DNA of 64,000 nt from an uncultured Chthonomonadaceae bacterium. Its GTDB lineage: Bacteria > Armatimonadota > Chthonomonadetes > Chthonomonadales > Chthonomonadaceae. The translations under genes were made by a program, and so were the position numbers. The stretch spans positions 79,062 to 143,061 of the forward strand of contig CAWIEK010000054.1 in assembly GCA_963835065.1 (NCBI GenBank), read 5' to 3'. Positions 1,781-60,020 of this stretch are shown here, piece after piece (position 1 is the first letter of the stretch; each line of letters opens with the position of its first letter). The notes below the pieces were generated by a model. That model did no database searches. It saw only the letters and a program-made list of their open reading frames with translations, and was not told the DNA's origin.

Positions 1781-4700
1781 TGCGGGCTTCCTGATGAGTT
1801 GGGTATTGGGCGAGCGCCTGCCGGTAGGATACGACGGCGGCGGCATAGGCTTCCGTGCGGAAGTAGCAGTTGCCCAGCACGAAGAAGCCGCCCTCCTGTT
1901 CGGGGCTGACTTCCAATCCGGCAAGATAGGTTTCCGCCGCCTTGTCGTACACGCCCAATTGGTACATCAGGTCGCCCGCGTTGAAGTAGGCGTTGCCATA
2001 CGTCGGGTCGCGCTGAATGGCCTCGGCGTAGTATTCCAGCGCTTCGCCCGGCGCGTTCAATCCTGCCAGTACGCGCCCCAAATTGACGCGCGCTTCCACC
2101 GACTCGGGACGCAGGCGCAGCAGGTTTTCGAACGCGGCGCGCGCTTCGTCCAGCAGATCGAGCTGTTCGCAGCAGGCCGCCAGTCGCGCCTGCGCCTCGT
2201 CATCGTCGGGTTTCTGCCATGCGGTGTGGCGCAGGTGCGGCAGGGCGCGTTCGTACTCCTTGCCCGCGTAATAGATCATGCCCAAATCGCGGATCGCGTC
2301 GTCGTGGGCCGGGCTTTGCGCCAGAACCATTTCCAATTCTTCACTTGCTTCCCACGTCCGATCCTGCTGCGTCAGGATGATGGCAAGCAGATACCGCGCT
2401 TCCACCATATTCGGCTGCTCTTCCAGGACTTCTTGACAGCACGGAATGGCTTCCACATGCCGATCCTGCCCGACAAGCGCCAGCGCAAGCCCGTACCGCG
2501 CCTTGTACGTGGACGCGCCCGCATCCCCGGTCTGCGTAAAGTGCGTATCGCTTGTTTCTTCGCGCCCTATGTCAATCGCCGCCCGGAACGCCATTTCCGC
2601 CGCCTCGTACTGTTCCGTGTGCAGCAGGCAGTAGCCGCGCGAAAATTCAATGCCCGCCTGCCGGAACCCTTTGGCGTCCGCCATCGCGCACACGTCCAAA
2701 CCTTCCCAGGGCTGCTGCATCCGGTGCAGGGCGGTGGACCATTCGACAAACAGGGTGACGCCGAACTCTTCCTCCTTGCCCACGCCCGGCGCGGCCAGGC
2801 TGAAATTGCGCGCGGCGTTGTCCATATCACCGAAGGTAAAGTAGGCGTTGCCAAGATTGAACAAATGGAAATCCCGGAAACCTTCGTCCGGGCACTCCTC
2901 CACTTCCCGCGTCAGCATACGGATAAACCGCTCGTGCTTGTTGCGCAGCGTCATGATCTCGCCCGCATACCCGAAGTGGTCAATCAGCAGGCCGTCGAAC
3001 CGCGCATACGTGTAGCCCAACGCCTGCAAGGAGCGCAGGTTCTGCTCGTGGATACGCCCCTCGAACTTTACGCCATCCACGCGCCGAAACAGGCGGCAGG
3101 CATGGTGAACCGCCATTTCGCCGCCCATCTCCTGCCCGGGTTTGGGCCGCGCCGCGGACGTAAGCCAGTTGTGAAACTTGACCATGTAGCCGCCCACTTC
3201 GGCAGGCGCGTTCCGCATGGCCTCGCGGAACAGAGGCCCGCTCCCCGGCGCAATCTCTTCGTCCGCATCCAGCCACAACACCCAATTGCCTGTCGCGTGT
3301 TCCAGCGACAGATTGCGCGCTTCGGCAAAATCGTCGTTCCATTCATAGGGCACGATCTTCGCGCCATATTCGCGGGCAATGTCCAGCGTCCCATCCGTCG
3401 AGCCGGTGTCCACAATCACAACCTCGTCCACAACGTCTTTCACCGATTCCAGACAGTTACGCAGGAACCGCTCCTCGTTTTTGACGATCATACACAGGGA
3501 AAGTGATGAGTGATGAGTGATGAGTGATGAATGGTCCTGTTCTTCTGTTCCCTGTTCCCTGTTCCCTGTTCCCTTTATCGCTTCTTCCGCCCGCTCATAC
3601 CGCTCCATCAGGCTGCGATAGGCGGGGGCGCGCTTGACGGCGGCGCGCTGCCTGTCGGGAACGCCGCGCAGCAGTTTGCGGGCTTTTTGCAGCACGGCGG
3701 TTTGGGCGCGCTCCACCGTGCGGCGCAGGTTGGGGTCGTCGGGCGTGGCCGCAAAGGCGAGAAGCACGTTTTCCAGCGCTTCTTCCGGCTGGCCTTCCGC
3801 CAGCAGAATAAAGCCCAGGTTGTGATGAAAGTCACGGGTATTAGGCGACGCGGCAATGCCCTGATGCAGCAGTTCCAGAGCGCGCGTTTTATCCCCGTTC
3901 GGTAACACGCGGCGGCAAGCGCGTTCACCACGTCCCAATCGTCCGCCCGCTCGATCAGGCAGGCATCCAGTTCTTCGACGGCGTTTTTCCAATCGCCGTT
4001 ACGCGCGGTTTCCAGCGCGGCCTGTTTGCGGTCCTCGTACATATCCCCGGCAGCTCGCAGTCCGGGCGTGGCAAAACTTCCCGGCAGGTTCAGCCCGCCC
4101 AACCCGGTATTTTGCCACCCCCCGCCCAGGCTCAAACCGCCCAGACCCATAGGGAGGTTGAGGGTTGAGGGTTGAGGGTTGAGAGGGGAAGACAATGCTG
4201 AATGCTGAGTGATGAGTGATGAATGGGATTCTGATTCATCATTCATCATTCCGCGTTCAGCACTGATTTTCCCTGTTCCCTGTTCCCTGTTCCCTGTTCC
4301 CTCACCCAGCGCGGACAGGCGCTCACCGGCAATCTGCGCGGCGTGATGCCAGGTATGTTTGGCCGCGATGTCGCGGGCGGCTTGCGCGCCTTTGGCCTGC
4401 GCTTCTTCCGGGTGGGCGGCGACGTGGCGGAGCAGTTCGCTCAGGGCGGCGCGGTCAGGTTCGGCCCAGAACGGATAATCTACCGTCGGCATGTTGCCGA
4501 CGTTCTTTTCCGCCATGCGCTGCGCTTCGGCGGGGATGAGATAACTATTCCCGGAGTTAGCGAAATCGAGAGCCGCGCCGAAATCAGTAACGATAGTTGG
4601 CTTGCCGCAGGCCATCGCTTCCGCAATCGGCAGGCCGTATCCCTCGCCCCGGTACGGATGTGCCAGGCAGTCACACGCGGCGTACAAACCAGCCAGTTCC

Positions 4701-5554
4701 GCTTCGCTCATGTCCTCATTGATATATACAATGTGCGCGCCATTGGGCTTGGCCTGCAATGCCCGAATCAAGGCTCCCGCGCCCTGATTGGCATAAAAGC
4801 TGTCCGCGCCGAAGTCCTTGACAATCAGTACAACCGGGTCCTGCGCCGTAAACGCCCGGTCATAAGCGTCCAGCAGTATATCAATCCCCTTTCGCGCAAT
4901 CGTGCCGCCAACGAACAGGAACTTATAAAGTTGAGGGTTGAGAGTTGAGAGTTGAGGGTGATTGTCTGTTCCCTGTTTCCTGTTCCCTATTCCCTCACTA
5001 ATGCCCGGATGAAACACACCGGTATTGACGCCATTGGGCACGACGATGACTTTTTCGCCCGGAACGCCGCTGGTGATATAGGTGTCGCGCACAAATTGGG
5101 AGGGAACCCAGATTTCGTCTACGCCGCGCTCAATCGCGCTGACCCAATGGCGCGGCAGAGAACCGAATTCCCAAGGCTGAATGAGAACCAGCTTGCCGCT
5201 TGCTGTGGGCGCAAACTCCGGGGGCCAGCGATGCCGAACCGTCACGGCGGGCGCGGACGCGGCCTCGCCCATGCGGGCCGCGAGGGACGCAAAACGCGCT
5301 TCGCCGCGCAGGGCAGGCAGGGGCGCGTCGTAGTGTTCCAGGCGCAGGTCGAAGCGTTCGGCAAAGGCCGGCGTATCGAGCAGCGCCAGCGTGAGTTCGC
5401 GATTCACAAGCGCCAGGCTATGCTGCACGAAAAACGCGCCGTTCCACGCAACGGTTTGCCGCTCCGAATAAGAATGGCTATGGGAATGGATTGCCGGAAA
5501 CAACGGTTCCGAACCAAAATGCAGGGGCATGGGAAACTCCTCACGGGAAGACAT
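1719..5554 (-). CDS. Multidomain glycosyltransferase GT4-TPR-GT2-TPR (split by 1-bp frameshift at ~3895)
   Basis: GT4 motif HPYRGEGYGLPIAEAMACG; GT2 motif SLCMIVKNEE...VDTGSTD...WLDADE; many TPRs; ORFs 3608-5554 and 1719-3992 join as ACYRTG-DKTRALELL if one G is added. Confidence 0.85.
3502..3574. repeat. In-frame heptamer cassette GGGAACA x4 / CATCACT x4
   Basis: Encodes GTGNREQGTEEQDHSSLITHHSSL between TPR and GT2 domains. Confidence 0.95.
4154..4302. repeat. In-frame four-array heptamer cassette
   Basis: GGGAACA, GAATGAT, CATCACT-like, CTCAACC arrays on the coding strand. Confidence 0.95.
4930..4995. repeat. In-frame heptamer cassette GGGAACA / CTCAACY
   Basis: GIGNRKQGTDNHPQLSTLNPQL. 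Confidence 0.9.
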
Positions 5555-5647
5555 CAGGCATTAGGCATTAGGCATTAGAGAAGAAGATAGAAGACAGAAG
5601 TGAATTCATCCTCCTCTAATGCCTAATACCTAATGCCTGATGCCTAA
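5552..5647. repeat. Inverted GGCATTA / TAATGCC arrays
   Basis: Between genes; supplies the stop of the upstream gene (LGIRH*). Confidence 0.9.
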
Positions 5648-8231
5648 CTCTTCTATCGTCAAAATCGGCACACAGCGCGCCTGCGCCAGTTCGCGCCAGA
5701 AGGGGGGCAATTGGTCGGCGATGAGCGCGTCGGCGACGTGCAGCAGTTTCCAGCAATCGGTTTGCGGAAGCGGCTGATGCAGCAGGGTGATGTTGGGCAG
5801 GCGGTCGGCTGTGATTGCCAGAGTTTGCCGCAGGAATTGCTCCATTTCCCACAGCAAGGCTTGCGCGTTCGGATGCGTGGCGGGGTCGGCCCGCAGCATC
5901 AGCAGAACCGGGTCTGTGGGCGCGTAGGCCAGTGTGAAGGCGCGTACCAGCGTCTGCCACTCCTCGGCGCGATTCCAGTCCGGCAGGGCCAGCAGACGCT
6001 TGATGGCGACGGGCGAACTTACACCGGCCTGCTGTTGCGGCGCTTCTTCCGCTTGTGGCCCTTCTTCCGCTTGCGGCATAGCCTGCCTCGGAGAAGTTAC
6101 ATCGCCTTGCTGTCGCTGCAATGCCTGCGCCTGACGCCGTAATGTCTGCGTGGCGGGAATGAGAGGCGCGTATACCGGACAGCCATTCAAAATTGCCAGC
6201 CATTCGTCCAGTCCGGTGAGGGCATCATTCGCGCGCTCCACGTCCAGGCACAGACGCGCCGATTCTTCTCGCGCCTGCACATGAAACGGCGAAGCCGTCA
6301 GGGTTGACCGGTAGGCGGCAAGCGCTTCTTCCACCCGGCCCAGGGCGCGCAAGGCGCAGGCAAGGGCGTTATGCGCTTCGCCCAATGCAGGCATTTCCGC
6401 AACAGCGATTTCGGCATGACGCGCGCTGTCCGCGAACTGCCCCCGCGCAAACGTGATTTCCGCCAGGGTCAGATGGACTCGGCACGTCAGCAACGCTTGC
6501 ATCTCAGAGCGCCAAGCCTCGCTTTCGGGCGCGTGTTCGCCATAAATGCGTTCCAACGCCACATCGAACCATTGAAAACAGCGCGGAAACACGACGCCCT
6601 GCAGCTGCCAGGTTGCTAAATAGTTGATAGTTGATAGTTGATAGTTGATAGGGAGGAGGGAACTATGAACTTTCTGCGTCCCACCGCTTTGTGATTCGGC
6701 CTGCAACTGCTCCTGAACTTCCCGCAGAGTGTTCTCGCCTTCCTCCGTTCTGCCTCCCGCAAAATACAAGTATGCCAGATTGAGCCGGGCCAGTACGTAC
6801 TCCGGCTCTTCTTGCGCCAGTTGCCGCGCCAGCCCAATCGCCGCCTGCAATTTTTGCCGCCCATACTGCGGCGATACCGCGCACCGCGCCATCTCCCCGG
6901 CAAGTACCGATTTGAAGAGGTTGAGAGTTGAGGGTTGAGGGTTGAGGGGAACAAGAGTTGATAGTTGATAGTTGATAGTTGATAGGGTATCCTCTCCTGC
7001 ATGTATCTTGTATCTTGTATCTTGTATCTCTTCCCTTTTCCCTTTTCCCTTTTCCCTTACCCCTTCTTCCGCCTTACTGTACACGGCGACGTTACAGGTC
7101 AGCAGCCAATGCGTGGCGAGCTGAAGGGATTGCTGCGCGGCGGGCAGGCGGCAGAAGGCGCGCGGAGGAAGCGAACCGGCCCGGCGAGAAGCGACGAATG
7201 GCTCCAACCGGTTGAGCAGGTCGGCAAAATGATGCGCGTAACTGTGCTGTGTGACTCGTTCGCGGCCATTGCGGGCGGTTTGTTCGCGCTCAAATCTGTT
7301 TTCGGGCGCGAGGTAATGAGCGAGCAGGTCTTCCAGATTGCTGTCGTTGTACAAAACGCAATGCTGGAGATCCGCGTACACATCGCGGATTTCGCGGTTT
7401 TCGGCTTCGTAGAACATCAATGCGCCGCAGGCCGGGGCCTCATACGCCCGCATGTTGGCTTCGCCCCGGATGCTGCGGTTGAACACGATTTTGGCGCGGT
7501 TCATCAGCCGAACGTACTCATCCCCGTAAACGCCACTGGTCAGCACAACTTTATAGCGCGTGGATAAAGCCGCCACCCGCGCCAGCCACCGCGCCCGCTC
7601 CCATTGTATGGCGTGATTGAAGTTGCCGATCATCAGAATGTCTATGTCGCGCTCGATGAAGTCGGTGTTCAGGTATTCGGGTGTTCGGTGTTCAAGGTGT
7701 TCGGTATTCGATGTTTGGTATTGGGTGTTTGGTATTGGGTATTTGGTGTTTGGTGTTTGGTGTTGGGTGTTCGGGTGCAGGAAGGCGGGACGCAGGATTG
7801 CGCAGAACGCGGTGCTTGTCTGGTTCGTGCGCCCAGAGCAGGCTGTGCAGGACGCTGGTAAATCCCATGTCGCGCAAACGCTCACAGCCCACACGATCCG
7901 CCACCAGAACGTCGAAGAGGCTGCCTACCGCCCGCATTGCCTGCCCACCCAGATTCCAATCCCCGAACACGCCCACTGTCAAACAATCGGCGTCTTCCAG
8001 TCCGGCGGGAATCGGGTTGTACTCAGGACTCCAGTGGATGTATACTTCCGGCATCCAGCCGACAGGGCATTGCGCCAGTACGTCCGTCCACTCCCTATCC
8101 GGCGTGACATTCAGATGGGCGTACCCGGCCCCAAACGCCAGAATGTCATCCCCGGCCTTTTCCCGGCCCGGCAGCGAACGCTTTTCCGCCACTTGCGGCA
8201 TCTGATTGGTATATCCGACGAGGAGGCGCAT
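5630..8231 (-). CDS. Glycosyltransferase (CgeB/GT1-like) with TPR repeats, frameshifted at ~7690-7800
   Basis: AKIVFNRSIRGEANMRAYEAPACG motif; TPRs; N-terminal ORF MRLLVG... changes frame at or beside a repeat tract. Confidence 0.75.
6918..7064. repeat. In-frame four-array heptamer cassette
   Basis: GGGAAAA, GATACAA, TCAACTA, CTCAACC arrays on the coding strand. Confidence 0.95.
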
Positions 8232-8243
8232 AGCAGTCTCCGA

Positions 8244-8366
8244 AGTAGTCAGAAGTGAGTAGTCAGTAGTCAGTAGAAATGCCTGTCTACTTAAGTTGTG
8301 CGGCATAGTCATGGCTTACAAGAAGAGGTTCCTCTACTGACTACTGACTACTCACTTCTGACTACT
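8244..8366. repeat. Inverted GTAGTCA arrays
   Basis: ~33-bp perfect inverted pair. Confidence 0.9.
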
Positions 8367-9544
8367 CTCCTTACTTCTTCTTCAATCCTTGCCGCGACAG
8401 GCGCATACGTGAAATGGGTTTCCAGATGGGCGCGGGCGGCTTCGCCTAAACTTCGGCCTTCCGCGCGGTCTTCAAAGGCGCGGCGCATCAATTGCCGCAG
8501 GTGGGCGCAGGACGGCTCCGCCCAACGGTGGCCGCGATACGTGGGGGTTTCGCGCCAGGCGGCTTCGGGCACATCCACGACTTCGTACTCCAGAACGTAG
8601 CTGTTGGCCGCGTTCATAAATTCCGTTTGGCCGCTCCAGCCGGTTGCGATCACGGGCAGTCCCATCGCCATCGCTTCCATGTACGGGCGGCCCCAACCCT
8701 CGCCCCGCGACGGCATCACGTAGCAATCGGCGGCGCGGTACAGATGGGGCATACGCGCATCCGGTACATTCGCGTCCTGCAGGACAATATCGGGAATGTG
8801 ATTCAGGTCGCCTTTCAAAACTTCGGAGATGTAGGACGCCATGCAGTCCAGCATCTGCGCCCCCGTATAGCCGAGCGAACTGTGCGTTTTGACAATCAGC
8901 GCGACCTCTTCCCCAACCTGAAACTCCTCCACAAACGCCCGCAGCAGAACGTCCCACCCCTTGCGCAATGTCCAATCGAAGACGGCCAGAAAATTGAAAC
9001 CGCGCGCGCCATTGATTTGGAGGGGAACGCAACCGGGATTGTACGGCGCTAAATCAATTGCGCCCGGAACCACGCGCAGCTTGTCCCGCTCCACGCCCGC
9101 GCCCGCAAACGTTTCCACGTTGAACGCGCTCGGAACCCACACGGCATCCATCCGGTTACACGCCTGCGCCCAGCCTTCAGGCAGGCGATCCGTTTCAAAC
9201 ATCGTGCGGCCTATGTTGGCGCGGGCGTTAGGGTCGCGCTCAAATAGGGGCGCAAGAATATGGCAGACGGAAATTCCTCCCCGAAGCGCGGGCTGCCGCA
9301 TCAACTGCTGCAAAATCCGCTCCCGTTCGGCGGGCAGGACAACGGCCTTATCGCTCCAGCGAATCGCCCGCGCCGCCACCTTCACCCCCGCCTGATGCAA
9401 GGCAAACAGAAAATGCCGCGCCTCGTCCGCATACCCGCTTGGATCGCGCAGGGGAGCGCGCCAGGTCAGGGGAAAGGATGAAGGATGAAGGATGAAGGAT
9501 GAAGAGTCTGTAGCTGATAGTTGATGGTTGATAGTTGAGCGCAT
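8348..9544 (-). CDS. GT4 glycosyltransferase
   Basis: RTMFETDRLP, RKGWDVLL, PSRGEGWGRPYMEAMAMGLP motifs; start uncertain. Confidence 0.85.
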   Translation of the reverse strand: MRSTINHQLSATDSSSFILHPSSFPLTWRAPLRDPSGYADEARHFLFALHQAGVKVAARAIRWSDKAVVLPAERERILQQLMRQPALRGGISVCHILAPLFERDPNARANIGRTMFETDRLPEGWAQACNRMDAVWVPSAFNVETFAGAGVERDKLRVVPGAIDLAPYNPGCVPLQINGARGFNFLAVFDWTLRKGWDVLLRAFVEEFQVGEEVALIVKTHSSLGYTGAQMLDCMASYISEVLKGDLNHIPDIVLQDANVPDARMPHLYRAADCYVMPSRGEGWGRPYMEAMAMGLPVIATGWSGQTEFMNAANSYVLEYEVVDVPEAAWRETPTYRGHRWAEPSCAHLRQLMRRAFEDRAEGRSLGEAARAHLETHFTYAPVAARIEEEVRRVVRSE

Positions 9545-9849
9545 TTCTTCTGTCTTCTGTCTTCTGCCCTTCTTTCCTATGTATCGGAAAGCGCGGCGTG
9601 GAAATTTAGCGGTTTGCAACGGCCTGTAAGACTTACCGGTTTGCAGGCGGTTGTCTTGTGATGTTTCCAGCCTGTCTGAAGCGCGTTTGAATTCTGCCGA
9701 CAATTCCACCGGAGTATTTATTGACTATGACAACAGCGCCACTGGGACACAACCCGCCGGATGAATCGCTTACGGATCGCGCGTCTATAAAAATGGCACT
9801 ACCGTAAAACCATAGAACCCTAAAACCCTGAAACCCTAAGAAAAGGAAA

Positions 9850-10221
9850 ATGGATATGGCAAAACGAGTTTTGATTACGGACGACGCGCTGTTTATGCGG
9901 GTCACGCTGCGCAACATTCTGACAAAAGGCGGCTATGAGGTGGTTGCCGAAGCCGCGAATGGACTGGAAGCGGTGGCGCGGTATCAGGAGTTTCGGCCCG
10001 ATCTGGTGACAATGGACATCACGATGCCGGAAATGGACGGAATCACCGCGCTGAAGGAGATTCGGGCGCGCGATCCCCACGCCAACGTTGTTATCTGTAC
10101 CGCGATGGGGCAAAAATCTATGGTGATGGAAGCGATGTCTGCCGGGGCCAGAGACTTCATTGTGAAACCGTTTCAGCCGGACAAAGTGATTGAAGCGGTG
10201 CAGAAGCTGATTGGAGCATAA
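9850..10221 (+). CDS. cheY: Chemotaxis response regulator CheY
   Basis: Single REC domain, DDALFMR, MDITMPEMDG, FIVKPF. Confidence 0.9.
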   Translation: MDMAKRVLITDDALFMRVTLRNILTKGGYEVVAEAANGLEAVARYQEFRPDLVTMDITMPEMDGITALKEIRARDPHANVVICTAMGQKSMVMEAMSAGARDFIVKPFQPDKVIEAVQKLIGA

Positions 10222-10230
10222 CGTGGCGCA

Positions 10231-10704
10231 ATGAAAATTCAGTACATCAATCCGTTTGTAACCGCCTCGTTTACGGTCATCGAGCAGGCACTGGGCATGA
10301 AGGCGCAGAAGGGGCCGCTTGCCATGCGGCCGGAACTGTTCACCACGCAGCAATGCAACATTCTCATCGGCCTGACCGGCAACGTGCATGGACAGATCAT
10401 CTATGGCATGAGCCTGACCACTGCGGACAAAATCGCTTCCCTTATGCTGGGACAGCAGGTACGCACATTTAATCAACTGGCGGCAAGCGCGATTGCCGAA
10501 TTAGGCAACATGATTACGGGCAATGCTTCCGCGCTGCTGGCCGAAGCCGGAATCGTCTGTGATATTACCCCGCCCACTGTCGTGCGCGGCGCCAACCTGA
10601 AAATGACCACGCTGGCAATTCCCGCGCTCGTCGTGCCGCTGTGCCTGGAATTAGGCGAGATCGAGCTGACGGTGTGTTTGGAGGAGGTAGACGGTAGACG
10701 GTAG
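10231..10704 (+). CDS. cheX: CheY-P phosphatase CheX
   Basis: YINPF N-terminus, SAIAELGNMITG, DITPPT motifs. Confidence 0.9.
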   Translation: MKIQYINPFVTASFTVIEQALGMKAQKGPLAMRPELFTTQQCNILIGLTGNVHGQIIYGMSLTTADKIASLMLGQQVRTFNQLAASAIAELGNMITGNASALLAEAGIVCDITPPTVVRGANLKMTTLAIPALVVPLCLELGEIELTVCLEEVDGRR

Positions 10705-10811
10705 ACGGTAGACGGTAGGAGAACTCCTTCTTGTAAGCTACTACTGAAGTTGAGAACTGTGAACGGTAGACGAGTATTTCTACCGTCTACTATCTACCGT
10801 CTACCGTCTAC
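10686..10811. repeat. Inverted GTAGACG arrays between convergent cheX and prs
   Basis: Supplies cheX stop (VDGRR*); same unit at 59893-60017. Confidence 0.9.
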
Positions 10812-10817
10812 CTCCTC

Positions 10818-11813: not shown

Positions 11814-12126
11814 GCTTGCAGGAACACGCGCGTCAGCGTGGACGGCAACAGTTTGTTCCTTTGTAATTTTCTCTACACTAAAGTATAGCCTAAAAGTATA
11901 GCCTATCGGGTTTCAGCGTGTCAACGACAGCATGCTTGGTGACTGATGGCTGGTAGTTGGTGGCTGGTGATTGGAAATAATACTTACAGCCTCTTGTCAG
12001 AACCTGTGCATTATGTTAGAATACTCCTACCCTACAGCGAATTGTATTCGCTTCGGCGTAGATTTGGTTTTCGATTGATTCAGTTGTGGTCGGTGTGCTT
12101 TTGTTTTCGCGAAAGGACGTGTACCC

Positions 12127-12813
12127 ATGACGTGCCCCCATTGTGGTTTTCTGATGTCGCCGCTCGATAGTGACTGCGCCCGTTGCCGTCATCGCGGCTA
12201 TGTGCCGCCTCCTCCGCCTTCCGCCCCAATCCCCAACGCCCAACACCCAACACCCGCTTATGCCCAAACACCTAATCCCCAATACCCAACCACGCAGCCC
12301 TCCCTGCATACCCTGACGGTTGTGGCGTGTTTGATGAGCATGGTGGCGTTCGCGAGTCTGGCGATGTTCGGCCTGATGCTGCGTGAACGGCGCATGGTTC
12401 GGCAGGAAGCGCAAATCGCTGCCCGGCAGGAAGCGGAAATCGCCGCCCTGCGCCGGCAATATGTCGTAGCGCCGGAAGCGCAATTCAACGCGCCCGCTCA
12501 GGTTCTGACGCCACAGCCGCAAATCATCCATGTTGAGGTAAATTCTCCCGCCTACCCGGTTTACGTTCCAACGCCTGTGTACCCGGTGTACGATCCCTTC
12601 GCTGAACATAGACGCCTGCACAATGAATTGCTGTACCAACAGCAGCAGATGTTCCGGCAGCAAAACGAGGACATGATGCGCCTTCACGCGGCCAATGTGG
12701 AGCGCATGAACGCCGACATGCAGCGTATGCGAGACCGGATGCAGGATGCGCGCCAGCAAACGCAAAGCGTCCGCGACCTTCACGACCCCTTCAACCCCTT
12801 CGGGCGTTTCTGA
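12127..12813 (+). CDS. Hypothetical membrane-anchored protein with N-terminal Zn-ribbon
   Basis: CPHC..CARC, Pro-rich linker containing CCCAAYM-like repeats, one TM helix, Q/M-rich coiled tail. Confidence 0.6.
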   Translation: MTCPHCGFLMSPLDSDCARCRHRGYVPPPPPSAPIPNAQHPTPAYAQTPNPQYPTTQPSLHTLTVVACLMSMVAFASLAMFGLMLRERRMVRQEAQIAARQEAEIAALRRQYVVAPEAQFNAPAQVLTPQPQIIHVEVNSPAYPVYVPTPVYPVYDPFAEHRRLHNELLYQQQQMFRQQNEDMMRLHAANVERMNADMQRMRDRMQDARQQTQSVRDLHDPFNPFGRF

Positions 12814-12857
12814 ACCGCCGTCCTCCTTCTGCTTTGCAATTTATGCGACACAACAGC

Positions 12858-12902
12858 AGCCCGCGTCCTTCCCACCAGCAAGGGAACGACGCGGGCTGTT
12901 TT
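12858..12902 (+). terminator. Intrinsic terminator
   Basis: CAGCCCGCGTC...GACGCGGGCTG stem followed by TTTT, between convergent genes. Confidence 0.6.
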
Positions 12903-12984
12903 GCGGCAAGTTCCAATTGGCCCTCAACCCCTGCCCCCTTCTCTCCAAAAACATGAGCAAAGGGGAGCGTGCCGGGGCAGGCTC

Positions 12985-13749: not shown

Positions 13750-14131
13750 AACGTGTCCTCTCTTTTCTCTTGTCGTCGAAGCGCCGGGGCGAAGAACACA
13801 GCCGCCGCGTAAAACAACGCTGTTGGATAGAAGCGTTGCGCAGGTTTGTGTTGTGTCCAGTATAAGCGAATTCGAGCGGAGAACACGTGAGGAAACACAC
13901 GGCGCAATGTGATTTCGCGCACAATTCAAGCCTATTTTGAAAGACGCGGAAACAGCCCGCAAAGACAGAGGAAAGACAGATTCAGGTAAGCGGCAGAAGC
14001 GCGAATGTGGTACGATAAAGAGGAAATACGTGTGGATTCGTATACCTTTACAACTTGAATTTCAAGTTTATCGTCCTATAAATGTAGAAATTCAGTACAG
14101 TATTCGCGCGTACACAGGAAGTCGAAGTATT

Positions 14132-15178: not shown

Positions 15179-15183
15179 ATTTT

Positions 15184-15411
15184 TCACCACAGAGGCACAG
15201 AGACACAGAGGTTTCACAGAGAAATACGAGGGAGAGAAGAAGATAGAAGATATAAGATATTAGCGGGACTGCCTGCAAGCGTGTTGTCTCCTTGAATAAT
15301 CCTGTTTAATCCTTCTAATCCCGTTAATCCTGTCTATTTCTTCTCCTTTTCTCCTTTTTTCTTTTCTTCTTCTCTCTGTGAAACCTCTGTGTCTCTGTGC
15401 CTCTGTGGTGA
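15184..15411. repeat. ACCAC-ended palindromic element copy A
   Basis: ~39-bp perfect terminal inverted repeats TCACCACAGAGGCACAGAGACACAGAGGTTTCACAGAGA; near-identical to 19412-19623. Confidence 0.9.
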
Positions 15412-15415
15412 GGTC

Positions 15416-16717: not shown

Positions 16718-16833
16718 AATAGAATGTCCTTTGGCAAGATGAGCATTGAACCTGTATTGTACGGCACAATGAAAAGACAAGTCAAATGCTTACGCCGTGT
16801 GCAGCGTATACAGCCATAAGGAAGGCAGGTGGC

Positions 16834-17577: not shown

Positions 17578-18500
17578 CAACCCTTTCTTTAGGTATTTCT
17601 CCCTGCCCCAACGACGTTTTCATCTTCAGCGGCATCCTGCTGAACCAAATTCCCATGAACAACCTGCGCTTCGACGTAGATTTTCAGGACGTGGAAAACT
17701 TAAATCAGCAGGCGCAGGCGGGCCGTCTGGATGTGGTAAAAATCAGCTACGCCAACTACATTCACTGCCGCAACGAGTATGACCTGCTGCCCTGCGGCGG
17801 CGCGTTAGGCCGGGGCGTCGGGCCGCTGCTGCTCGTTAATGCAGAAGAAAAGGAGAAAAGGAGAAAAGGAGAAAAGGAAACGGAAGAGCAGGGAACAGGG
17901 AACAGGGAACAGGGAACAGAAGAGAATGCCCTATCAACTATCAACTATCAACTATCAACTCCTGCTTCATCCTTCATCCTTCATCCTTCATCCTTTCCCC
18001 TCCTCGTTCCCGGCGTAAATACTACCGCCAATTTTCTGCTGGATTTTTATGCCAATCCGAACGGAACTACGCCGCTGCAAAAGCGGTTTCTGCCGTTCGA
18101 TGCGCTCTATGACGAACTGTGCCGGACGCCGGGGGCGCGGGGCGTGGTGATTCACGAGAAGCGGTTTACGTATGAACAGGACGGCCTGACGCTCATTCAG
18201 GACTTGGGCGCGTATTGGGAACAGCAGACCGGGTATGCCATTCCGCTTGGGGCAATCTGCGTCCGCAAGTCACTCGACCTGGCTGCTCAACTTACCGATA
18301 TAATTCAGCGCAGCCTCGCCTGGGCTTACGCGCATTACGAGCAAGCCTTTGAACTTTGCAAACAATACGCGCAGGATTTAAGCGCGGGCGTGGTCGAATC
18401 CCATATCCGGCTGTACGTCAATTCGTATTCCGAAAACCTGGGCGCGGACGGAGAAGCCGCCGTCCGCTTCTTCCTCGAACAACAAGGCGTCAGGCAGTAG
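17574..18500 (+). CDS. mqnD: 1,4-dihydroxy-6-naphthoate synthase, with ~50-aa repeat-derived insertion
   Basis: SPCPND, DVENLN, GGALGRGVGPLL, VIHEKRFTY, IPLG, HIRLYVN. Confidence 0.92.
   Translation: MTTLSLGISPCPNDVFIFSGILLNQIPMNNLRFDVDFQDVENLNQQAQAGRLDVVKISYANYIHCRNEYDLLPCGGALGRGVGPLLLVNAEEKEKRRKGEKETEEQGTGNREQGTEENALSTINYQLSTPASSFILHPSSFPLLVPGVNTTANFLLDFYANPNGTTPLQKRFLPFDALYDELCRTPGARGVVIHEKRFTYEQDGLTLIQDLGAYWEQQTGYAIPLGAICVRKSLDLAAQLTDIIQRSLAWAYAHYEQAFELCKQYAQDLSAGVVESHIRLYVNSYSENLGADGEAAVRFFLEQQGVRQ
17846..17996. repeat. In-frame four-array cassette inside mqnD
   Basis: GAAAAGGA x~4, GGGAACA x4, TCAACTA x4, TCATCCT x4. Confidence 0.95.
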
Positions 18501-18581
18501 GTGTCAGGTGTCAGGTGTCAGGTGTCAGGTATTGGCTTCTGTCTTCTGCCCTAATACCTGACACCTGACACCTGACACCTA
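18499..18581. repeat. Inverted GGTGTCA arrays
   Basis: Between mqnD and larC. Confidence 0.9.
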
Positions 18582-19411: not shown

Positions 19412-19623
19412 TTCACCACAGAGGCACAGAGACACAGAGGTTTCACAGAGAAATACGAGGGAGAGAAGAAGATAGAAGATATAAGATATTAGCGGGACGT
19501 GCTCTGTCTTAATCCTGTTTAATCCTAATCCCGTTAATCCTGTCTATTTCTTCTCCTTTTCTCCTTTTCTTCTTTTCTTCTTCTCTCTGTGAAACCTCTG
19601 TGTCTCTGTGCCTCTGTGGTGAA
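19412..19623. repeat. ACCAC-ended palindromic element copy B
   Basis: Same TIRs and internal arrays as 15184-15411; starts right after the larC stop. Confidence 0.9.
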
Positions 19624-19631: not shown

Positions 19632-21623
19632 CTATTTCAGGGAGCGGCCGAAGGGAGGAACCAGGCCCTGTTCGACGGCGAGACGGGTGGCTTCCGTGCG
19701 GTTGGTGACGTCCAATTTGGTGAACAGGTTGGACAGGTGGTACTCGACGGTTTTGGGAGCGATGAACAAGGCGGTGGCGATCTCTTTATTGCGCGCCCCC
19801 TGCGCCAGAAGCTGCAAAATCTCGCGTTCGCGCTCGTTCAGGTCGAAACGCCCGTGTCCTGACGCCAGCGCCGCAAGATGATCCGTGACAACCGGAGCCA
19901 GCAGGGATTTGCCCCGGTGCGCCGCCTGTATCGCCGCCACCAATTCCGTCGCGTTGGTATCTTTCAGCAGAAACCCCCGCGCGCCCAATCCCAACGCTTC
20001 CGAAATCGCATGTTCCGTGTGCAGCGTCGTCAAAATCACGACAGGAACTTTGGGCTTGCGGATATGCAGCCGCCGCAAGCCTTCCAGTCCGTCCACATCC
20101 GGCATCTGCAAGTCCATCAGCACGACATCCGGCTCGATGAGCAGGGTTTGCTCCACCGCCTGCGCCCCATTCGCCGCTTCCCCGACCACAACGACTTCGG
20201 GGCTGGTTTGCAGCATCACCCGTATTCCCTGCCGCGCCAGCGCATGGTCATCCACAATCAACACTTTAATCGGGTTGAGGGGGGCAGGAGTTGATAGTTG
20301 ATAGTTGATAGTTGATGGCGCATCCTCTGCTTCTGTCTTCTGTCTTCTGTCTTCTGTCTTCCCTTCTGTTCCCTGTTCCCTGTTCCCTGTTCCCTGATGA
20401 ATGGGCGTGGCCGGGCGGTAGGGCAGGGACACGCGCAGTCGGGTTCCCCAGCCGGGGGTGCTGTCTATGTGCAGCATCGCGCCGACGAGTTGGGCGCGTT
20501 CGCGGATACCGAACAGGCCATAGCCGCTTTCGGGACCGGGAGTACGCTCGGCTTCAGGGTCAAATCCAACGCCGTCATCTTCAATGAGCAGGGTGACTTC
20601 CTTTGCGCCATATTGCAGACCGACGCGGATACGCTGCGGCTGCGCGTGTTTACGGGCGTTGGTCAGGGCTTCCTGCGCGATGCGGAGCAGGGACGCGCGC
20701 TGATCGGGCGTCAGCGGCTGTTCCTCACCCGAAAGGATAAACTGCGTGGCAATACCCAACTCGGTTTCCAGTTGCTCGGCTTCCTGCGCAATCGCCTGCG
20801 CGGGCGACAGCGCTTCGGCGGCGGAAGCGGCCAGGCCGCGCACCGCGCGGCGCGTATCTTCCAGCGCGGTTTTCGCCAGCCCGTGCGCCTGTGTCAGCAT
20901 CTCTTCAGCCCCGGCAATGTCGGAGCGTCGCAGCGCGATGCGCGTGGTTTCGATTTGCAGAATCACGACAACAAGAGCCTGCGCAACGGTATCGTGGATT
21001 TCGCGCGCCAAGCGGTTGCGCTCTTCCAGCATGGCGATTTCGCGCTGCTGTTCAATGCGCTGCGACAGGGCGATTGCCAGCGTTCCCATATCCGCCAGGC
21101 TTTGAAAACCTTCCATTTCCTCCGGCGCGAACTCTCGACCGGCCTCCGGGTAGACTACAAGCGCGCCGGCAAAGCGCTGCTCATATTGCAGCGTAATCAT
21201 CAGCAGGCTGGAAATATTTTCGTCCCGGTACAGTTGGCGCAGTTCGGGGCTGAGTTCGTTATCTTCCTGCACGTTAGGTGCGAAGATGGGCTGCCCGGAT
21301 GCCTGCGCGCGGCGGAGAATGGGAGACATGGGCACGACCTGCGTGACCGCGTTGGCGTATTCCAGCGACACATTGCGCAGAGCAATCGGCGCGATACGGC
21401 CCTGCTCGTCCCGCAAAAACAGGCCGATGCGCTCCACATGCAAATGTCGGGCGATCACCTCGCTGATCAAACGCGCCACTTCCGCCAGGGGCTTGCCTTC
21501 CAGAATGGCGGCGGCTACTTCCCGTCCATAAAATTGTGTCGGCGCATTGGCGTCACATTCCGCAGTTGTCGCTATTCGTGGCTGCATCTTTCTCACCACT
21601 CCCCTTCCGGCATACTCGCGCAT
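19632..21623 (-). CDS. Fused GAF-HisKA_3-HATPase-REC-LuxR hybrid regulator
   Basis: EERNRLAREIHD, QEALTNARKHA, DDGVGF, VDDH, MDLQMP, REREIL...NKEIA...KTVEYH. Confidence 0.9.
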   Translation of the reverse strand: MREYAGRGVVRKMQPRIATTAECDANAPTQFYGREVAAAILEGKPLAEVARLISEVIARHLHVERIGLFLRDEQGRIAPIALRNVSLEYANAVTQVVPMSPILRRAQASGQPIFAPNVQEDNELSPELRQLYRDENISSLLMITLQYEQRFAGALVVYPEAGREFAPEEMEGFQSLADMGTLAIALSQRIEQQREIAMLEERNRLAREIHDTVAQALVVVILQIETTRIALRRSDIAGAEEMLTQAHGLAKTALEDTRRAVRGLAASAAEALSPAQAIAQEAEQLETELGIATQFILSGEEQPLTPDQRASLLRIAQEALTNARKHAQPQRIRVGLQYGAKEVTLLIEDDGVGFDPEAERTPGPESGYGLFGIRERAQLVGAMLHIDSTPGWGTRLRVSLPYRPATPIHQGTGNREQGTEGKTEDRRQKTEAEDAPSTINYQLSTPAPLNPIKVLIVDDHALARQGIRVMLQTSPEVVVVGEAANGAQAVEQTLLIEPDVVLMDLQMPDVDGLEGLRRLHIRKPKVPVVILTTLHTEHAISEALGLGARGFLLKDTNATELVAAIQAAHRGKSLLAPVVTDHLAALASGHGRFDLNEREREILQLLAQGARNKEIATALFIAPKTVEYHLSNLFTKLDVTNRTEATRLAVEQGLVPPFGRSLK
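20272..20396. repeat. In-frame heptamer cassette forming kinase-REC linker
   Basis: GGGAACA, GAAGACA, TCAACTA arrays. Confidence 0.95.
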
Positions 21624-28589: not shown

Positions 28590-28695
28590 AGTCAGTATAA
28601 TACCACAGGAGCAGGGTTTTAGGGTTCTATGGTTTTAGGGTTTTAGGGAAGCAGAGTGTTGAGCATCGGTGTTCGAGGAAGGCAGGTACTCGGCT

Positions 28696-30861: not shown

Positions 30862-30957
30862 GATAAGAGATAAGAGAGTGGTTTATGTAACTTGTATGTA
30901 GAGTCTGAGTAAGCTTTTTCCTCTTATCTCTTATCTCTTATTTCTTATCTCCCGCCT

Positions 30958-40170: not shown

Positions 40171-40206
40171 ACTCTTTCCTAATGCCTAATGCCTAATGTC
40201 TAATGC

Positions 40207-41274
40207 CTACTCTGCCCATCGCTCCCGATTGTACGTATAAATCTCGTTGAGAATGTCGGACACGTTTTTGGTGTGCGTCCAGGCGGGATAGTGCGTCTTG
40301 AACTTGGTCATGTCGCTGATGTACCAGATGTGGTCTCCGATGCGGTTGTCTTCCACATACTGCGTTTTCATCTTGTTGCCTGTGATCTCTTCGCACATCT
40401 GAATGGCTTCCAGCATGGAGCAATTGCTGTAACGCGCCCCGCCCACGTTGTAGGCTTCGCCCTGACGCGGGTTCTCATAAAAATGGTAGAACAGGCTGAC
40501 AAGATCGTGGCTGTGGATGTTGTCGCGCACCTGCTTGCCCTTGTAGCCGAAGATGCGGTACTCCTTGCCCGTCGCGGCGCACTTCATCAGGTAGGCGAGA
40601 AAGCCGTGCAGTTCCGCGCCCGAATGTCCCGGCCCGGTCAGGCAGCCGCCCCGAAACACGCCCGTGTTCATGCCGAAATATTTGCCGTACTCCTGTACCA
40701 TCACGTCGGCAGCCACTTTGGACGCCCCGAACAGCGAGTGCTTGCTGGCGTCAATGGACATGTGTTCGTCAATGCCCTCTTTATAATAGGGGTGCGATTC
40801 GTCTATCTCCCAGCGCGTTTCGAGTTCCAAAAGCGGCAGGCGGTTGGGCGTGTCGCCGTACACTTTGTTGGTGGAAGTGAAGATAAACACGGCTTCGGGG
40901 CAGAATTGGCGCGTGGCTTCCAGCATGTTGAGCGTGCCGTTGGCGTTCACGGTGAAATCGGTAAACGGCTCGCGGGCGGCCCAGTCGTGGGACGGCTGCG
41001 CGGCGGTATGCACCACGAGTTTCACGTCGCTGCCGTACTTCTCAAAAATGCGCGACAGCCCGCCGAAATCCCGAATATCGGCGGCCTCGTTGGTGAAGTT
41101 GGGCAGGGACGAGGTAAGTTGGTTCAACTGCCACTGCGTCGAGGCTTCCTCGCCGAAAAAGTATTTGCGCATGTCGTTGTCAATGCCGACGATGGCAAAG
41201 CCCTTGCCGCTCAGATACCGCACGGCTTCGCTGCCGATCAATCCGGCGGAGCCGGTCACAATCGCTACGGACAC
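40207..41274 (-). CDS. NAD-dependent epimerase (CDP-paratose 2-epimerase-like)
   Basis: [31 protein letters not shown]. Confidence 0.88.
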
Positions 41275-46643: not shown

Positions 46644-47513
46644 AGAGCAACCTCCTGCCTGAAAAATCAATGCGGAAAAAGTGGGTATCATTAAGACAGC
46701 GCAGACGCGCTGCAGGTTGCGCTCCGTAACCACAAAACGTGAAAATAGCCGCGAATGAACGCGAATGAACGCAAATAAACTGTCAATACCCCTTCATTCT
46801 ATCTCATTTTGCCTCGTTCTGTCCACAGCCGGAACTTCTTACGCAGGGTCGGCGCCTCTAAACGGAAAAAGAAAAAGAGTATGTAGAGACAGCGTCGAAA
46901 TCTTGGCAATGCAGCGCTTCCAGCCCGATGTCTCGTTGTGTCAGATTGTAAGAAGAGAGGCGTCGTGACCTCGTAAGCGTCAGGGCGAACGGGGAGAGTG
47001 TACAGGCATCTTCTTGCACCTCCCTTCCGGGTTAGTTGATAGTTGAGAGTTGATAGTTGATAGGCACTATGAACTTTCAACGTCCCGCCACCTGGCTCGT
47101 TAGCAGTCTCTACTATGTAGACGTGCATTTACATTTAGACGAGGTGAAGACAGAGAAGGTTCATTTGATTCTGCTGTTTATGTAGATATTTTTCTACTTT
47201 TTGCGCGTTCCTTTTGGATTGGGCAACCAGGAGGAGGGACGCAGGCGCAGCACAGGGGCGAATGTATCCCGACGGGAGGGTGTTGAGCATTTTAGATGCG
47301 CCGGCCCTGACTTATTACGCGAGGCAGGGATTACCGTTTTGCGCGGCGAATAGAGTGGCAGCATCCCAAATTTCCGAATACCCGGCTGTACGGCCTCCGT
47401 ATTATTGTTCAGGCGACAGGTGAATTTGTCAGGATACCGCCTTTTATTCTATAATATTTATGTTGCTATATCAATGTTCTTGCCTGCCGCCATCTGCGGA
47501 GGAGAAGTAAATT

Positions 47514-53261: not shown

Positions 53262-53277
53262 GGACACGTTTACGCTG

Positions 53278-53706: not shown

Positions 53707-53721
53707 CTCTCAGGAAACAGT

Positions 53722-55618: not shown

Positions 55619-55703
55619 CAGCGGTGTTCGGGTGTTCAGGTTTTGGATATATTGGGGTGTTGTGGTGACATTGGGGTGATATTGGAGGAGTGCGGAAGAC
55701 ATT

Positions 55704-57245: not shown

Positions 57246-58509
57246 CTGTCTTTGGCCTGTCCGCGCGGCTCCATACGAAGAGCGCGGCGGTGATGGCAAG
57301 CGCGAGGAAAGCGTTCAGGCGCACGGCGTTGAAGGCATTGAGATGTTCCGCCAGATACCCGATTTCCAGCCCGCCAACCGAAAACAGGCCGTTAAAGACA
57401 AGGGAGTAGACCGCCATCACGCGTCCGCGCAGGTCGTCGGGCACTTCCTCTTGCACCTTAATTTGAGAACTGATTCCGAACACGATCATGGCAAACCCGC
57501 TCAGGACGAGACACGTGAGCGCGAACCAGTACAATCCCGCCCACGACAGCAGCAGCAGCGACAGACAGAACAACACCGCCCCGCCATACACTTTCACCTT
57601 CCCCGACACCCGCGTTCCCACCCAAGCCAATGCCAATCCCGCAAATGCTGCGCCCAAGCCATTTGCCGCCATCATCGCGCTGTAGCCGCGCGAACCCACT
57701 TTGTACGCATCCGCAAACACGGGAAACAGGGTGGAAAGCGGCCAGGTGAAGATACTGGCCGCGCCGATCAGCAGCATCACGCGCAAAATGCTGTGGTTAT
57801 CTCGAATGTAGCGAAAGCCATCCAAAACGGAGCCGGTTGCTTTTGCCACCGTAAACGGCGGCAGGCGCATCATCAGCAGGGAAATGATAACGGCAATAAA
57901 ACTGAGGCCGTTGAGGAGGAAGCAAGCGGACGTGCCGATCTTGACCAGCACAATTCCGGCCAGAATCGGGCCGAGGATACGCGCCAGATTGAAGCGGAGG
58001 GAGTTGAGCGCTATGGCGTTGCCCAGTACCTTGCGGTCTTCCACCATGTCGGTAACGAACGCCTGCTGCGCGGGCATATTGAACGAGTTGACGACGCCGG
58101 ACAAACCCGAAATCGCGGCGATATGCCACGCTTGAAGCGGAACCGGGGAAAAGCGCGAAGCCAGCAGAGCAAGGACAAACGCCAGCAGCATGGCAATGGC
58201 TTGTGTCCACACCAAAATAGTCCGGCGCGAATAGCGATCCGCAAGCTGCCCGCCCCACACGGCGAAAACAACAAACGGGATCGCATTCGCGCCCGACACG
58301 ATGCCCAGCCATTTGGGAGAGTGCGTCACCTCCCAAACCAGCCACTTTTGCGCTACGTCCTGCATCCAGGTTCCCGCCACGGAAATCAGTTGCCCGTAGA
58401 AAAACAGCCGAAAATTGCGGTACGTCAGCGCGTGAAACATTCCCGGCTTCACGTTGGTGATTGGTGGTTGGTGGTCAGTGGCTGGTGACTGGTAATCGGA
58501 TACTTTCAC
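57241..58509 (-). CDS. MFS transporter
   Basis: RNFRLF..GQ.IS..GTWMQ, GGQLADR, ALNS..FNLAR.LGP, RGRVMA. Confidence 0.92.
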   Translation of the reverse strand: MKVSDYQSPATDHQPPITNVKPGMFHALTYRNFRLFFYGQLISVAGTWMQDVAQKWLVWEVTHSPKWLGIVSGANAIPFVVFAVWGGQLADRYSRRTILVWTQAIAMLLAFVLALLASRFSPVPLQAWHIAAISGLSGVVNSFNMPAQQAFVTDMVEDRKVLGNAIALNSLRFNLARILGPILAGIVLVKIGTSACFLLNGLSFIAVIISLLMMRLPPFTVAKATGSVLDGFRYIRDNHSILRVMLLIGAASIFTWPLSTLFPVFADAYKVGSRGYSAMMAANGLGAAFAGLALAWVGTRVSGKVKVYGGAVLFCLSLLLLSWAGLYWFALTCLVLSGFAMIVFGISSQIKVQEEVPDDLRGRVMAVYSLVFNGLFSVGGLEIGYLAEHLNAFNAVRLNAFLALAITAALFVWSRADRPKTE

Positions 58510-58591
58510 ATGAATTCCTGTTGCGTACAGACGTTAGGTGACAGAATGATTGTCGTCAGCCAATCACCAATCACCAACCACCAGTCACCAA

Positions 58592-59875
58592 CTACTCATA
58601 GCGCAAGGCTTCAATCGGGTGCAGAGCGGCGGCTTTACTGGCCGGATAAATGCCGAAGAAGATGCCGATACCGCCCGATACCACGAGAGCGGCGACAACA
58701 GCGGTTGAATTGACGACCGTGTTCCAGCCCGCGATTTGCGACAGAATAGCTGCACCGCCCACGCCCAGGCAGATACCGAGCAGCCCGCCAAGCAGCGAAA
58801 TAATCGTGGCTTCAATGATAAACTGCATGGAAATGTCGCGGGGCGTGGCTCCGATGGCTTTGCGGATACCGATTTCCCGCGTCCGCTCCGTAACCGATAC
58901 GAGCATGATGTTCATAATGCCGATGCCGCCCACGACGAGCGAGATAACGGCAACCGCCGACAGCAGCGTGGTCATGGTTCCCGTGACGCTTTGCTGCGAT
59001 TCGAGCAGTTCCGTCTGGCTGCGAATGTTGAAGTCGTCGTTGTCGGGAAACGGCGGCTGCAAATGGTGGCGGTTGCGCAAAAACGCGGCAATCTGCTCCT
59101 GCGCGAGGGGCATCATCTGCTGGCTTGTCGCGCTGATAGACACAAAGTTAAGGAAGCGGCGGTTCAAAACGCGGTTCATAGCCGTCGTGATCGGGATGAT
59201 AATCACGTCATCCTGATCCTGCCCCCACGCGCCCGACCCTTTTGGTTTCAACATGCCGATAACGTGAAAACCGATACGGTTGATGAGAAGGTCTTTGCCG
59301 GTCAGGTCAATGCTGGCATCGCCAAGCAGTTTTTCCGAAACGCTGTGGCCCACCACGCAGACTTTCTGGCTGCCTTCCTGCTCGTTTTCCGTAAAAAAAC
59401 GCCCGCTGTCCACGTCCGCATTGCTGACTTGCAGGTATTCGACAGTAGAGCCGGTCAGGTTGGAATTGGCGTCCTTATTTTCCAGGCGTACCTGTATGTT
59501 GCCGCGCACCTGCGGAGCCACAGCCGCCACCGCCTGCGGAAAGTTCTTTGCGATCAATTTGGCGTCGTCAAGCGTCAGCGTCGAACTGCCGCCGCCCATG
59601 CCGCCACCGCTCGACGTACTCGACGCGCTGGTGCTGGAACCGTTTTTCGTGACCGCCGTGATACGGATATGCGACTGCCCCGGCCAGATGGAAAGCTGAT
59701 TGGTTCCCAGTTGGTTGATGGTTTCCGTAACGCGCTGTGTTGCGCCCTGTCCAATCGCCACCACCAAAATGACGACAGCGACGCCGATGATGATACCCAG
59801 CATCGTCAAAGCCGTCCGCATTTTGTTACTGGCAAGCCCGCGCATGGCAACTCGCAAACTTTCAAGCAGGTTCAT
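58592..59875 (-). CDS. MacB/FtsX-type ABC permease
   Basis: RTALTMLGIIIGV, GGIGIMNIMLVSVTERTREIGIRKAIGA, PIEALRYE. Confidence 0.95.
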   Translation of the reverse strand: MNLLESLRVAMRGLASNKMRTALTMLGIIIGVAVVILVVAIGQGATQRVTETINQLGTNQLSIWPGQSHIRITAVTKNGSSTSASSTSSGGGMGGGSSTLTLDDAKLIAKNFPQAVAAVAPQVRGNIQVRLENKDANSNLTGSTVEYLQVSNADVDSGRFFTENEQEGSQKVCVVGHSVSEKLLGDASIDLTGKDLLINRIGFHVIGMLKPKGSGAWGQDQDDVIIIPITTAMNRVLNRRFLNFVSISATSQQMMPLAQEQIAAFLRNRHHLQPPFPDNDDFNIRSQTELLESQQSVTGTMTTLLSAVAVISLVVGGIGIMNIMLVSVTERTREIGIRKAIGATPRDISMQFIIEATIISLLGGLLGICLGVGGAAILSQIAGWNTVVNSTAVVAALVVSGGIGIFFGIYPASKAAALHPIEALRYE

Positions 59876-60020
59876 TTAGGCACTCCGGGGAAGACGGTAG
59901 ACGGTAGACGGTAGACGGTAGCCACACAATCGGACGCTTGGTTAAAAAAACTATGTTTCTCATGCTCAATTGTCGTTTTTGGTCTACCGTCTACCGTCTA
60001 CTGTCTTCCGTCTTCCCTCC

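Follow-up and report, generated by a model that had tools for sequence, protein, structure and literature searches.

The 64,000-nucleotide stretch examined here (the window) belongs to an assembly of an uncultured Chthonomonadaceae bacterium (G000; 8.0 Mb, 71 contigs, 92% complete), and cassettes of tandem 7-base repeats lie between and within its protein genes, among them glycosyltransferase/TPR genes. Each complete cassette consists of a G-strand array and a C-strand array, which we call arms, on the two sides of a spacer; elsewhere in the genome, such arms flank genes of the TIGR02436/S23p family (PF05635). At a strict threshold the window holds 29 arrays of period 7 and three of period 8, with none at periods 4-6 or 9-12, and 60 Markov-3 simulations of 64 kb yielded no period-7 array. 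The cluster positions listed in an initial annotation, made from the window's letters, were confirmed, two starts shifting by a few bases (12232 instead of 12225, and 20289 instead of 20272). Period 7 dominates the whole genome as well, with 1,772 arrays against 9 of period 6, beside 312 of period 8 and 56 of period 9, and 1,354 array clusters were counted. The arrays are confirmed as real and non-random. Contigs from four independent public runs, which reach window positions 3000-17800 only, align onto them, and 136 period-7 arrays were counted in 1.08 Mb of the congener G002; on this basis they are not an assembly artefact. The public runs gave no clean alleles because their short contigs break at arrays. 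Polarity is fixed, as the initial annotation had proposed: G-strand arms precede C-strand arms in all 14 transitions of the window and 531 times within the clusters of the genome, against 6 times in the reverse order, and when direction was scored without G/C content, 1,161 of 1,206 outer arms followed the majority direction of their family.

The arms share a precise anatomy. An arm starts at an RG dinucleotide (R, purine) and ends at or just past another, its modal length being 30-33 bases, and the modal copy number is four full units plus a partial fifth that carries the RG core, which agrees with the earlier claim of about four copies. Across 13 units, arms with two to eight RG cores number 66, 294, 404, 858, 40, 5 and 2, respectively, and 217 of the 253 GGGAACA arms have five. 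At least 44 different units are each present four or more times in G000. The pattern GNNRNNN, first put forward as a shared grammar, matches 41 of these 44 units and 38.7 letter-shuffled ones (p 0.16), no better than composition; a post hoc pattern, RGNNRW(N/Y), fits 31 of the 44 against 22.7 in shuffles (p 0.002), a modest enrichment. Only 433 of the 1,772 arrays contain a GGG run. In most of the 11 unit families examined the G of the core is nearly invariant and the other positions vary, so that what is conserved in an arm is the RG core repeated five times, not GNNRNNN. Unit variants in these families are mostly transitions, show no adenine bias and occupy fixed unit positions within arms, and variants are mirrored in both arms of 54 of 59 cassettes, compared with 28.6 by permutation. 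Given their fixed positions and this mirroring, arms are copied as blocks.

Adjacent G and C arms form 559 pairs, 267 complementary and 292 hybrid, with median spacers of 57 and 20 bases, respectively. The spacers fall into families linked to the unit, yet hardly any two are the same; the few pairs that are near-identical, although their sites are unrelated, show occasional copying. Judged by approximate calls of 6,468 genes, 7 of the 267 complementary cassettes and 136 of the 292 hybrids lie within genes, the G arm starts about 5 bases or less from the upstream stop, and 10-20 bases remain between the far arm and the next start. Spacers do not follow the direction of transcription (same/flipped, 17/20 and 19/23), and a fixed orientation to it was rejected on these counts. 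At one locus, C49:676400-678600 of G000, cassettes occupy four successive junctions of an apparent ribosomal protein operon.

Comparison with G002 (1.08 Mb, flanks 83% identical, arrays scored at a lower threshold) revealed 72 orthologous multi-arm sites, of which 43 carry different units, 12 share one unit, 2 have the same units, 7 have no arrays and 8 are empty. Sites with different units keep slightly alike spacers (p 0.001; n=21 of the 43, both spacers at least 30 bases), and therefore at least some arms were rewritten around a kept centre. In the overlapping contig ends of G000, which are probably strain haplotypes, most cassettes are identical, while 5 of about 42 sites, counted by hand, changed unit; one-unit gains and losses are also seen between alleles, and one allele pair has a gene cassette and a gene-less GGCATTA cassette at the same site, with flanks 99% and 96% identical.

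A second line of evidence, independent of any consensus artefact at contig overlaps, comes from a separate dispersed repeat of 250-450 bases and about 135 copies, with a strong ribosome-binding motif and no Rfam match, represented in the window at 46870-47320 and by a remnant near 6620-6700. One internal site of this family has no arm in 74 copies and otherwise one arm only, whose unit differs between copies (41 GTTGATA, 6 GTTGAGA, 6 of an 8-mer and 8 others); chimeric arms there join at the common core, in register, and total about five units. The initial annotation had read the arrays as ends or scars of a mobile or enzymatically generated element. Active generation rather than slippage holds good; insertion scars fit less well, as sites persist while their content changes. 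At the clearest empty site, in a 98%-identical 23S rRNA gene, no target-site duplication was seen, and the 8 empty G002 sites are too diverged to call one. The clusters are better described as persistent sites at which arms are rewritten or exchanged than as insertion scars.

Other hairpins share this behaviour. Between C8:207-383 and C20:16212-16369, two different hairpin repeat families swap at one site with flanks 96-99% identical, and site-level exchange is therefore not limited to heptamer cassettes. A palindromic repeat, CCTCTCC...GGAGAGG, lies at window 40040-40170 (tandem at 40040) and 12917-12975, and replaces the 7662 arm in a congener.

The 23S rRNA gene of G000 itself contains three gene-less stem-loop insertions at variable helices; all have heptamer arms, in pairs at two of them and as a single arm at the third. 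One of these sites is a plain GTAA loop in G002 and a same-length hairpin without arrays in a second congener, G001. An RNase III gene is present in G000. In an intervening sequence (IVS) that bears an S23p gene, tandem GACAGAT heptamers precede the open reading frame (ORF) and an RNase III site lies at the first repeat, according to the available part of PMC4990558.

Three TIGR02436 genes were found in G000, on contigs C25, C8 and C33, scoring 106-130 bits against the hidden Markov model (curated cut-off 24), and each is flanked by a G arm on one side and a C arm on the other; those of the C25 gene are mosaic arms that do not reach the strict array threshold. The initial annotation had named such four-helix-bundle genes as candidates, and a survey of homologs bears this out. 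For 80 homologs of one G000 gene from many phyla, 77 with both flanks, an array lies within 170 bases in 64 of the 77 and in 2 of 147 control windows; period-7 arms are G-type upstream in 38 cases against 3, and C-type downstream in 47 against 3. In a larger homolog set, arrays stand beside 135 of 150 genes and the inward unit is G-rich in 119. We extended the analysis to 221 genomes of the phylum with a degenerate four-unit pattern, which catches about 62% of arrays even in G000, and took genomes with at least 10 hits as array-rich. These comprise 44 of 99 gene-positive and 4 of 122 gene-negative genomes, so that the gene is present in 44 of the 48 array-rich genomes; permuting gene status within families 20,000 times gave a mean of 31.5 and a maximum of 40 against the observed 44. 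G001, in which a profile search found no TIGR02436 gene, has 25 period-7 arrays per Mb (23% perfect) in a 520-kb sample, compared with 126 per Mb in G002 and 221 per Mb in G000 (60% perfect). A divergent four-helix protein clade (L003, L046, L055 and L217) has 8-base units in all four members and is a possible period-determining subfamily.

The modelled TIGR02436 protein consists of four helices (predicted local distance difference test score 95) and matches Xcc0516 (2GSC; TM 0.89, root-mean-square deviation 0.9), BT_0352 and, at TM 0.75, Avd. Its two sequence-level PDB relatives, 2GSC and 2RLD, have five chains each; from these and from the available part of PMC4990558 we infer a homopentamer. 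According to the accessible text of 10.1101/2023.10.23.563531, Avd of diversity-generating retroelements (DGRs) is a pentameric barrel whose five protomers leave crevices between them in which flipped-out RNA bases are bound, and it takes no part in chemistry. Scores of the G000 proteins against DivGenRetAVD are 28-33 bits, where the Avd cut-off is 80. On the predicted structure, a five-subunit ring would fit an arm of five cores. The link of the arrays to TIGR02436/Avd-like genes, suggested at the outset, stands; the search brought no enzyme to light, the protein having a non-enzymatic, Avd-like fold.

Genes of other kinds also lie near arrays or were considered as partners. Three GxxExxY genes (PF13366; C19:8329-8673, C39:76631-76981 and C3:174084-174431; L155-L157) are each bracketed by inverted 8/9-mer arrays, and gene-less copies of these nest with heptamer cassettes; arms of the GxxExxY type are also resembled by some of the window's 8/9-mer arms. 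The GxxExxY genes and their arms form a parallel gene-plus-arms system. Two Y1 transposase genes, C42:76532-76870 and C51:103107-103445, are flanked by their own inverted palindromic repeats, in the manner of RAYT. A reverse transcriptase (RT) gene at C50:52481-56503 (L154) and its two neighbours are set apart from one another by GTAGTCA cassettes; one of the neighbours may be Cas1-like.

We lean, on balance, towards REPIN-like hairpins whose arms would be held by a predicted pentameric TIGR02436 ring and recopied by host enzymes. With its five subunits the ring would take hold of one single-stranded arm by that arm's five RG cores, and would bring together the arms of two cassettes, or both arms of one fold-back, so placed that host replication or repair enzymes could copy one arm onto the other by template switching, in register. 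Such switching would restore arms to five cores and let new units spread, and from time to time an entire cassette, or the gene, would be moved. At the RNA level, complementary cassettes may fold into long stems that RNase III would cut, as in rRNA IVSs, which are excised by this enzyme without religation; the places where such cassettes would survive are hence the gap from a stop to the following ribosome-binding site and the tips of rRNA helices, and mostly non-complementary hybrids would survive inside genes. Heptamer repeats of cyanobacteria are known by the label STRR. A wider proposition, attractive though its odds seem to us somewhat less than even, is that the cassettes form a transposase-free selfish system in which a predicted Avd-like pentamer counts five cores and directs host recopying among hundreds of hairpins, with protein clades preferring particular units, and that this would be a common source of the heptamer excess in bacteria, STRR-type repeats and S23p rRNA IVSs, and possibly an ancestral Avd role.

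Other explanations account for part of this evidence. The arrays could be domesticated regulatory sites at which the ring binds mRNA and tunes operon translation or processing, selection keeping the five cores and the sites while ordinary recombination, unaided by the protein, swaps units; the close spacing of arms to stop and start codons, the retention of sites between species and the translational role proposed for TAACTGA repeats (PMC4679880, as far as its main text goes) are in keeping with this. We nevertheless consider it unlikely, because the cassettes are palindromic with spacers whose orientation is untied to transcription, occur in ORFs, rRNA and another repeat family besides, do not conserve units at a given site, and in the gene-less G001 remain only as decayed arrays. 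Alternatively, the GxxExxY PD-(D/E)XK nuclease, a RAYT or another nuclease would cut or move the hairpins, and the four-helix-bundle gene would be a passenger spreading between arms. GxxExxY genes do have inverted 8/9-mer arms of their own, nested composites combine both arm types, and array-rich genomes are commonest where both genes are present (35 of 55, against 9 of 44 with TIGR02436 alone). Set against this, genomes with GxxExxY alone are array-rich in 3 of 23 cases (neither gene, 1 of 99), nine array-rich genomes have the four-helix gene alone, and the five-core count is left unexplained; a RAYT partner was rejected, since none of 4 Y1 transposase matches has a period-7/8 array within 500 bases. 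We judge the nuclease explanation decidedly unlikely.

That an RT with an Avd-like ring adds repeats to the 3' ends of a break, in a telomerase-like way, or writes cDNA onto arms as in a DGR, seems very improbable. By sequence logic, the G-strand-inward polarity is the expected outcome if both sides of a break are extended at their 3' ends, and the Avd fold and weak DivGenRetAVD scores are in its favour; however, 23 of the 48 array-rich genomes, near-complete ones among them, yielded no RT, on which ground dependence on RT was rejected, no true Avd above the cut-off was found in G000 and no RT stands beside its TIGR02436 genes, and the variants, mostly transitions without adenine bias, sit at fixed positions as if block-copied. 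Hardly any credence can be given to 7-base polymerase slippage with four copies kept as G-quadruplexes. One-unit gains and losses between alleles would suit it, as would the four-unit preference and G-quadruplex folding reported for GGGAATC in the available part of PMC4692102. The G-run-free families contradict G-quadruplexes as a general cause, which was rejected given that most arrays lack a GGG run, and a slippage microsatellite was likewise rejected: core counts peak at five with no decay with length, phase and polarity are not random, units change wholesale at fixed sites, and the arrays are associated with one gene family. The initial remark that slippage could hardly explain the arrays is thereby borne out.

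Several observations weigh against the recopying of arms by a TIGR02436 ring. Neither an enzyme nor a catalytic partner was identified for the proposed copying step, and the TIGR02436 fold is non-enzymatic; 7 longer homologs among 486 candidates showed no recurring partner domain, which is weak evidence. More than half of the gene-positive genomes (55 of 99) have fewer than 10 pattern hits, 4 array-rich genomes lack a TIGR02436 gene even by profile search, and array-rich genomes are far scarcer with this gene alone than with both genes. For three abundant units, GTTGATA, GGCATTA and GGATGAA, the 92% complete assembly contains no gene flanked by matching arms, and gene-adjacent arms are often degenerate or exceed five cores. 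Unit similarity rises with protein identity across phyla (of protein pairs at 55-65% pairwise identity, 28% have units that differ at one position or none, against 2-3% of pairs below 45%), which could be specificity and could also be hitchhiking, kin not being independent. Where contigs overlap, strain mixtures may have produced the mixed arms as artefacts of the consensus, and the G001 density is that of one genome.

As far as the accessible sections of the cited sources describe them, several known systems resemble these cassettes in part. REPIN hairpins consist of two inverted conserved arms around a variable spacer and are extragenic, with no family hybrids found (PMC3337134). Like REPIN-RAYT, the cassettes are hundreds of gene-less hairpins, nearly all with unique spacers, beside a few partner genes with the same arms; unlike it, the arms are tandem 7/8-mer arrays rather than palindromic REPs, the flanked partner is a small four-helix bundle rather than a Y1 tyrosine transposase, hybrids make up 292 of 559 pairs, 136 of them within genes, and arms are rewritten in place. 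With S23p-bearing 23S IVSs the cassettes share the protein family, terminal inverted repeats and tandem heptamers, and the three 23S insertions of G000, though no other copies, are placed like them; nearly all copies in G000 lack a gene and are found among or within protein-coding genes, and its three TIGR02436 genes are in operons. In Xanthomonas and Nostoc, GGGAATC and GGGGA(C/T)T repeats have period 7, a four-unit preference and convergent pairs (PMC4692102), and among the arrays in the supplement of that paper is one of four units that overlaps the start of xcc0516, the gene of the crystallised pentamer. Both these and the Beggiatoaceae TAACTGA repeats lie beside stop and start codons as here, and their units fit RGNNRWY on one strand, except GGGGACT. 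The two papers (PMC4692102 and PMC4679880) describe one unit per genome and propose G-quadruplexes, slippage or translational control, whereas at least 44 units occur here, most without G runs; the available passages of the former do not discuss xcc0516 or link arrays to a four-helix-bundle gene, and the main text of the latter does not mention four-helix or Avd proteins. DGR Avd is a pentameric barrel, the fold predicted for the TIGR02436 protein, and its five crevices for binding bases are equivalent (10.1101/2023.10.23.563531); in contrast to a DGR, RT, template repeat and adenine-specific change are absent here, and Avd scores lie far below the cut-off.

A literature search, with bioRxiv supplements and most subscription journals outside it, found no paper that connects the arrays with this gene family. 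Convergent heptamers of four units have been published, as have heptamers in one IVS; the five-core count, in-place rewriting and the genome-level gene-array association come from the present analysis. The gene-array link would explain the long-noted excess of 7-base repeats in bacteria and would join it to two other old puzzles, the role of S23p-family proteins and the origin of rRNA intervening sequences, while the five-core count makes a sharp biochemical prediction. In-place rewriting at more than 1,000 sites, in-frame protein inserts included, is a source of genome variation, and the arrays translate into spurious low-complexity peptides. A programmable repeat-counting ring would, if true, be of technical interest, and should counting and conversion of repeats by the ring be demonstrated, the system would be new in kind.

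Table 1. Array cassettes and arms of the window (units read on the G strand)
Position	Strand	Feature	Context
3502..3574		Hybrid cassette, GTGATGA arm / C-strand GGGAACA arm	Within glycosyltransferase/TPR ORF 1719-3908 (minus), reading frame left open
4156..4302		2+2 cassette, GTTGAGG, GTGATGA / C-strand GAATGAT, GGGAACA	Within ORF 3608-5554 (minus)
4929..4995		Hybrid cassette, GTTGAGA / C-strand GGGAACA	Within ORF 3608-5554 (minus); 84 different letters in a relative's contig
5552..5647		Complementary GGCATTA cassette with inner GAAGACA arm	Co-oriented genes either side
6620..6651	+	Lone GTTGATA arm	In remnant of separate dispersed repeat family
6919..7070		2+2 hybrid, GTTGAGG, GTTGATA / C-strand GATACAA, GGGAAAA	Within ORF 5630-7894 (minus); partly different units at orthologous site in congener
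7662..7774	+	Long mosaic G-strand arm, GGTGTTC, GGTATTG, GGGTGTT	Other sequence in relatives
8244..8366		Complementary GTAGTCA cassette, family-type palindromic spacer	Intergenic
9474..9566		Arms GGATGAA and GTTGATA, then C-strand GAAGACA	
9801..9839	-	Lone 8-mer arm, GGGTTTTA on G strand	Stops just ahead of ribosome-binding site
10686..10812		Complementary GGTAGAC cassette	Between convergent genes; orthologous site in G001 without cassette
11937..12295		Degenerate G-strand arm at 11937-11974 and degenerate C-strand arm starting at 12232	
15188..15407		Nested composite, heptamer and octamer arms enclosed by CACAGAGA outer arms	Outer arms resemble GxxExxY-type 8/9-mers; near copy at 19417-19618
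17846..17995		2+2 hybrid cassette	In frame within ORF 17574-18500; congener keeps both outer arms, inner arm different
18499..18580		Complementary GGTGTCA cassette	Begins at stop codon; orthologous site in G002 empty
19417..19618		Second nested composite cassette	
20289..20396		1+2 hybrid, GTTGATA / C-strand GAAGACA, GGGAACA	Within sensor/response-regulator ORF; units differ in G002
28613..28648	+	Lone 8-mer GGGTTTTA arm	
30862..30951		GATAAGA cassette with decayed left arm	
40178..40209	-	Lone GGCATTA arm (C strand on plus)	Adjoins unrelated palindromic repeat
47033..47063	+	Lone GTTGATA arm	At variable internal site of 135-copy repeat family
55623..55685	+	Degenerate G-strand arm	Follows stop codon
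56881..57225		Large nested composite, 8/9-mer arms, G-strand arms leading	
58453..58591		Complementary GGTGATT/GGTGGTT cassette	
59892..60016		Complementary GGTAGAC cassette	Co-oriented genes either side

In the window, the in-frame hybrid cassettes of the glycosyltransferase/TPR genes (1719-9385) encode low-complexity peptide inserts that differ among relatives. No known RNA families were found in the window. Near the contig end, a 27-base and a 31-base repeat stand in perfect tandem at positions 63646-63736 and 63881-63950, respectively.

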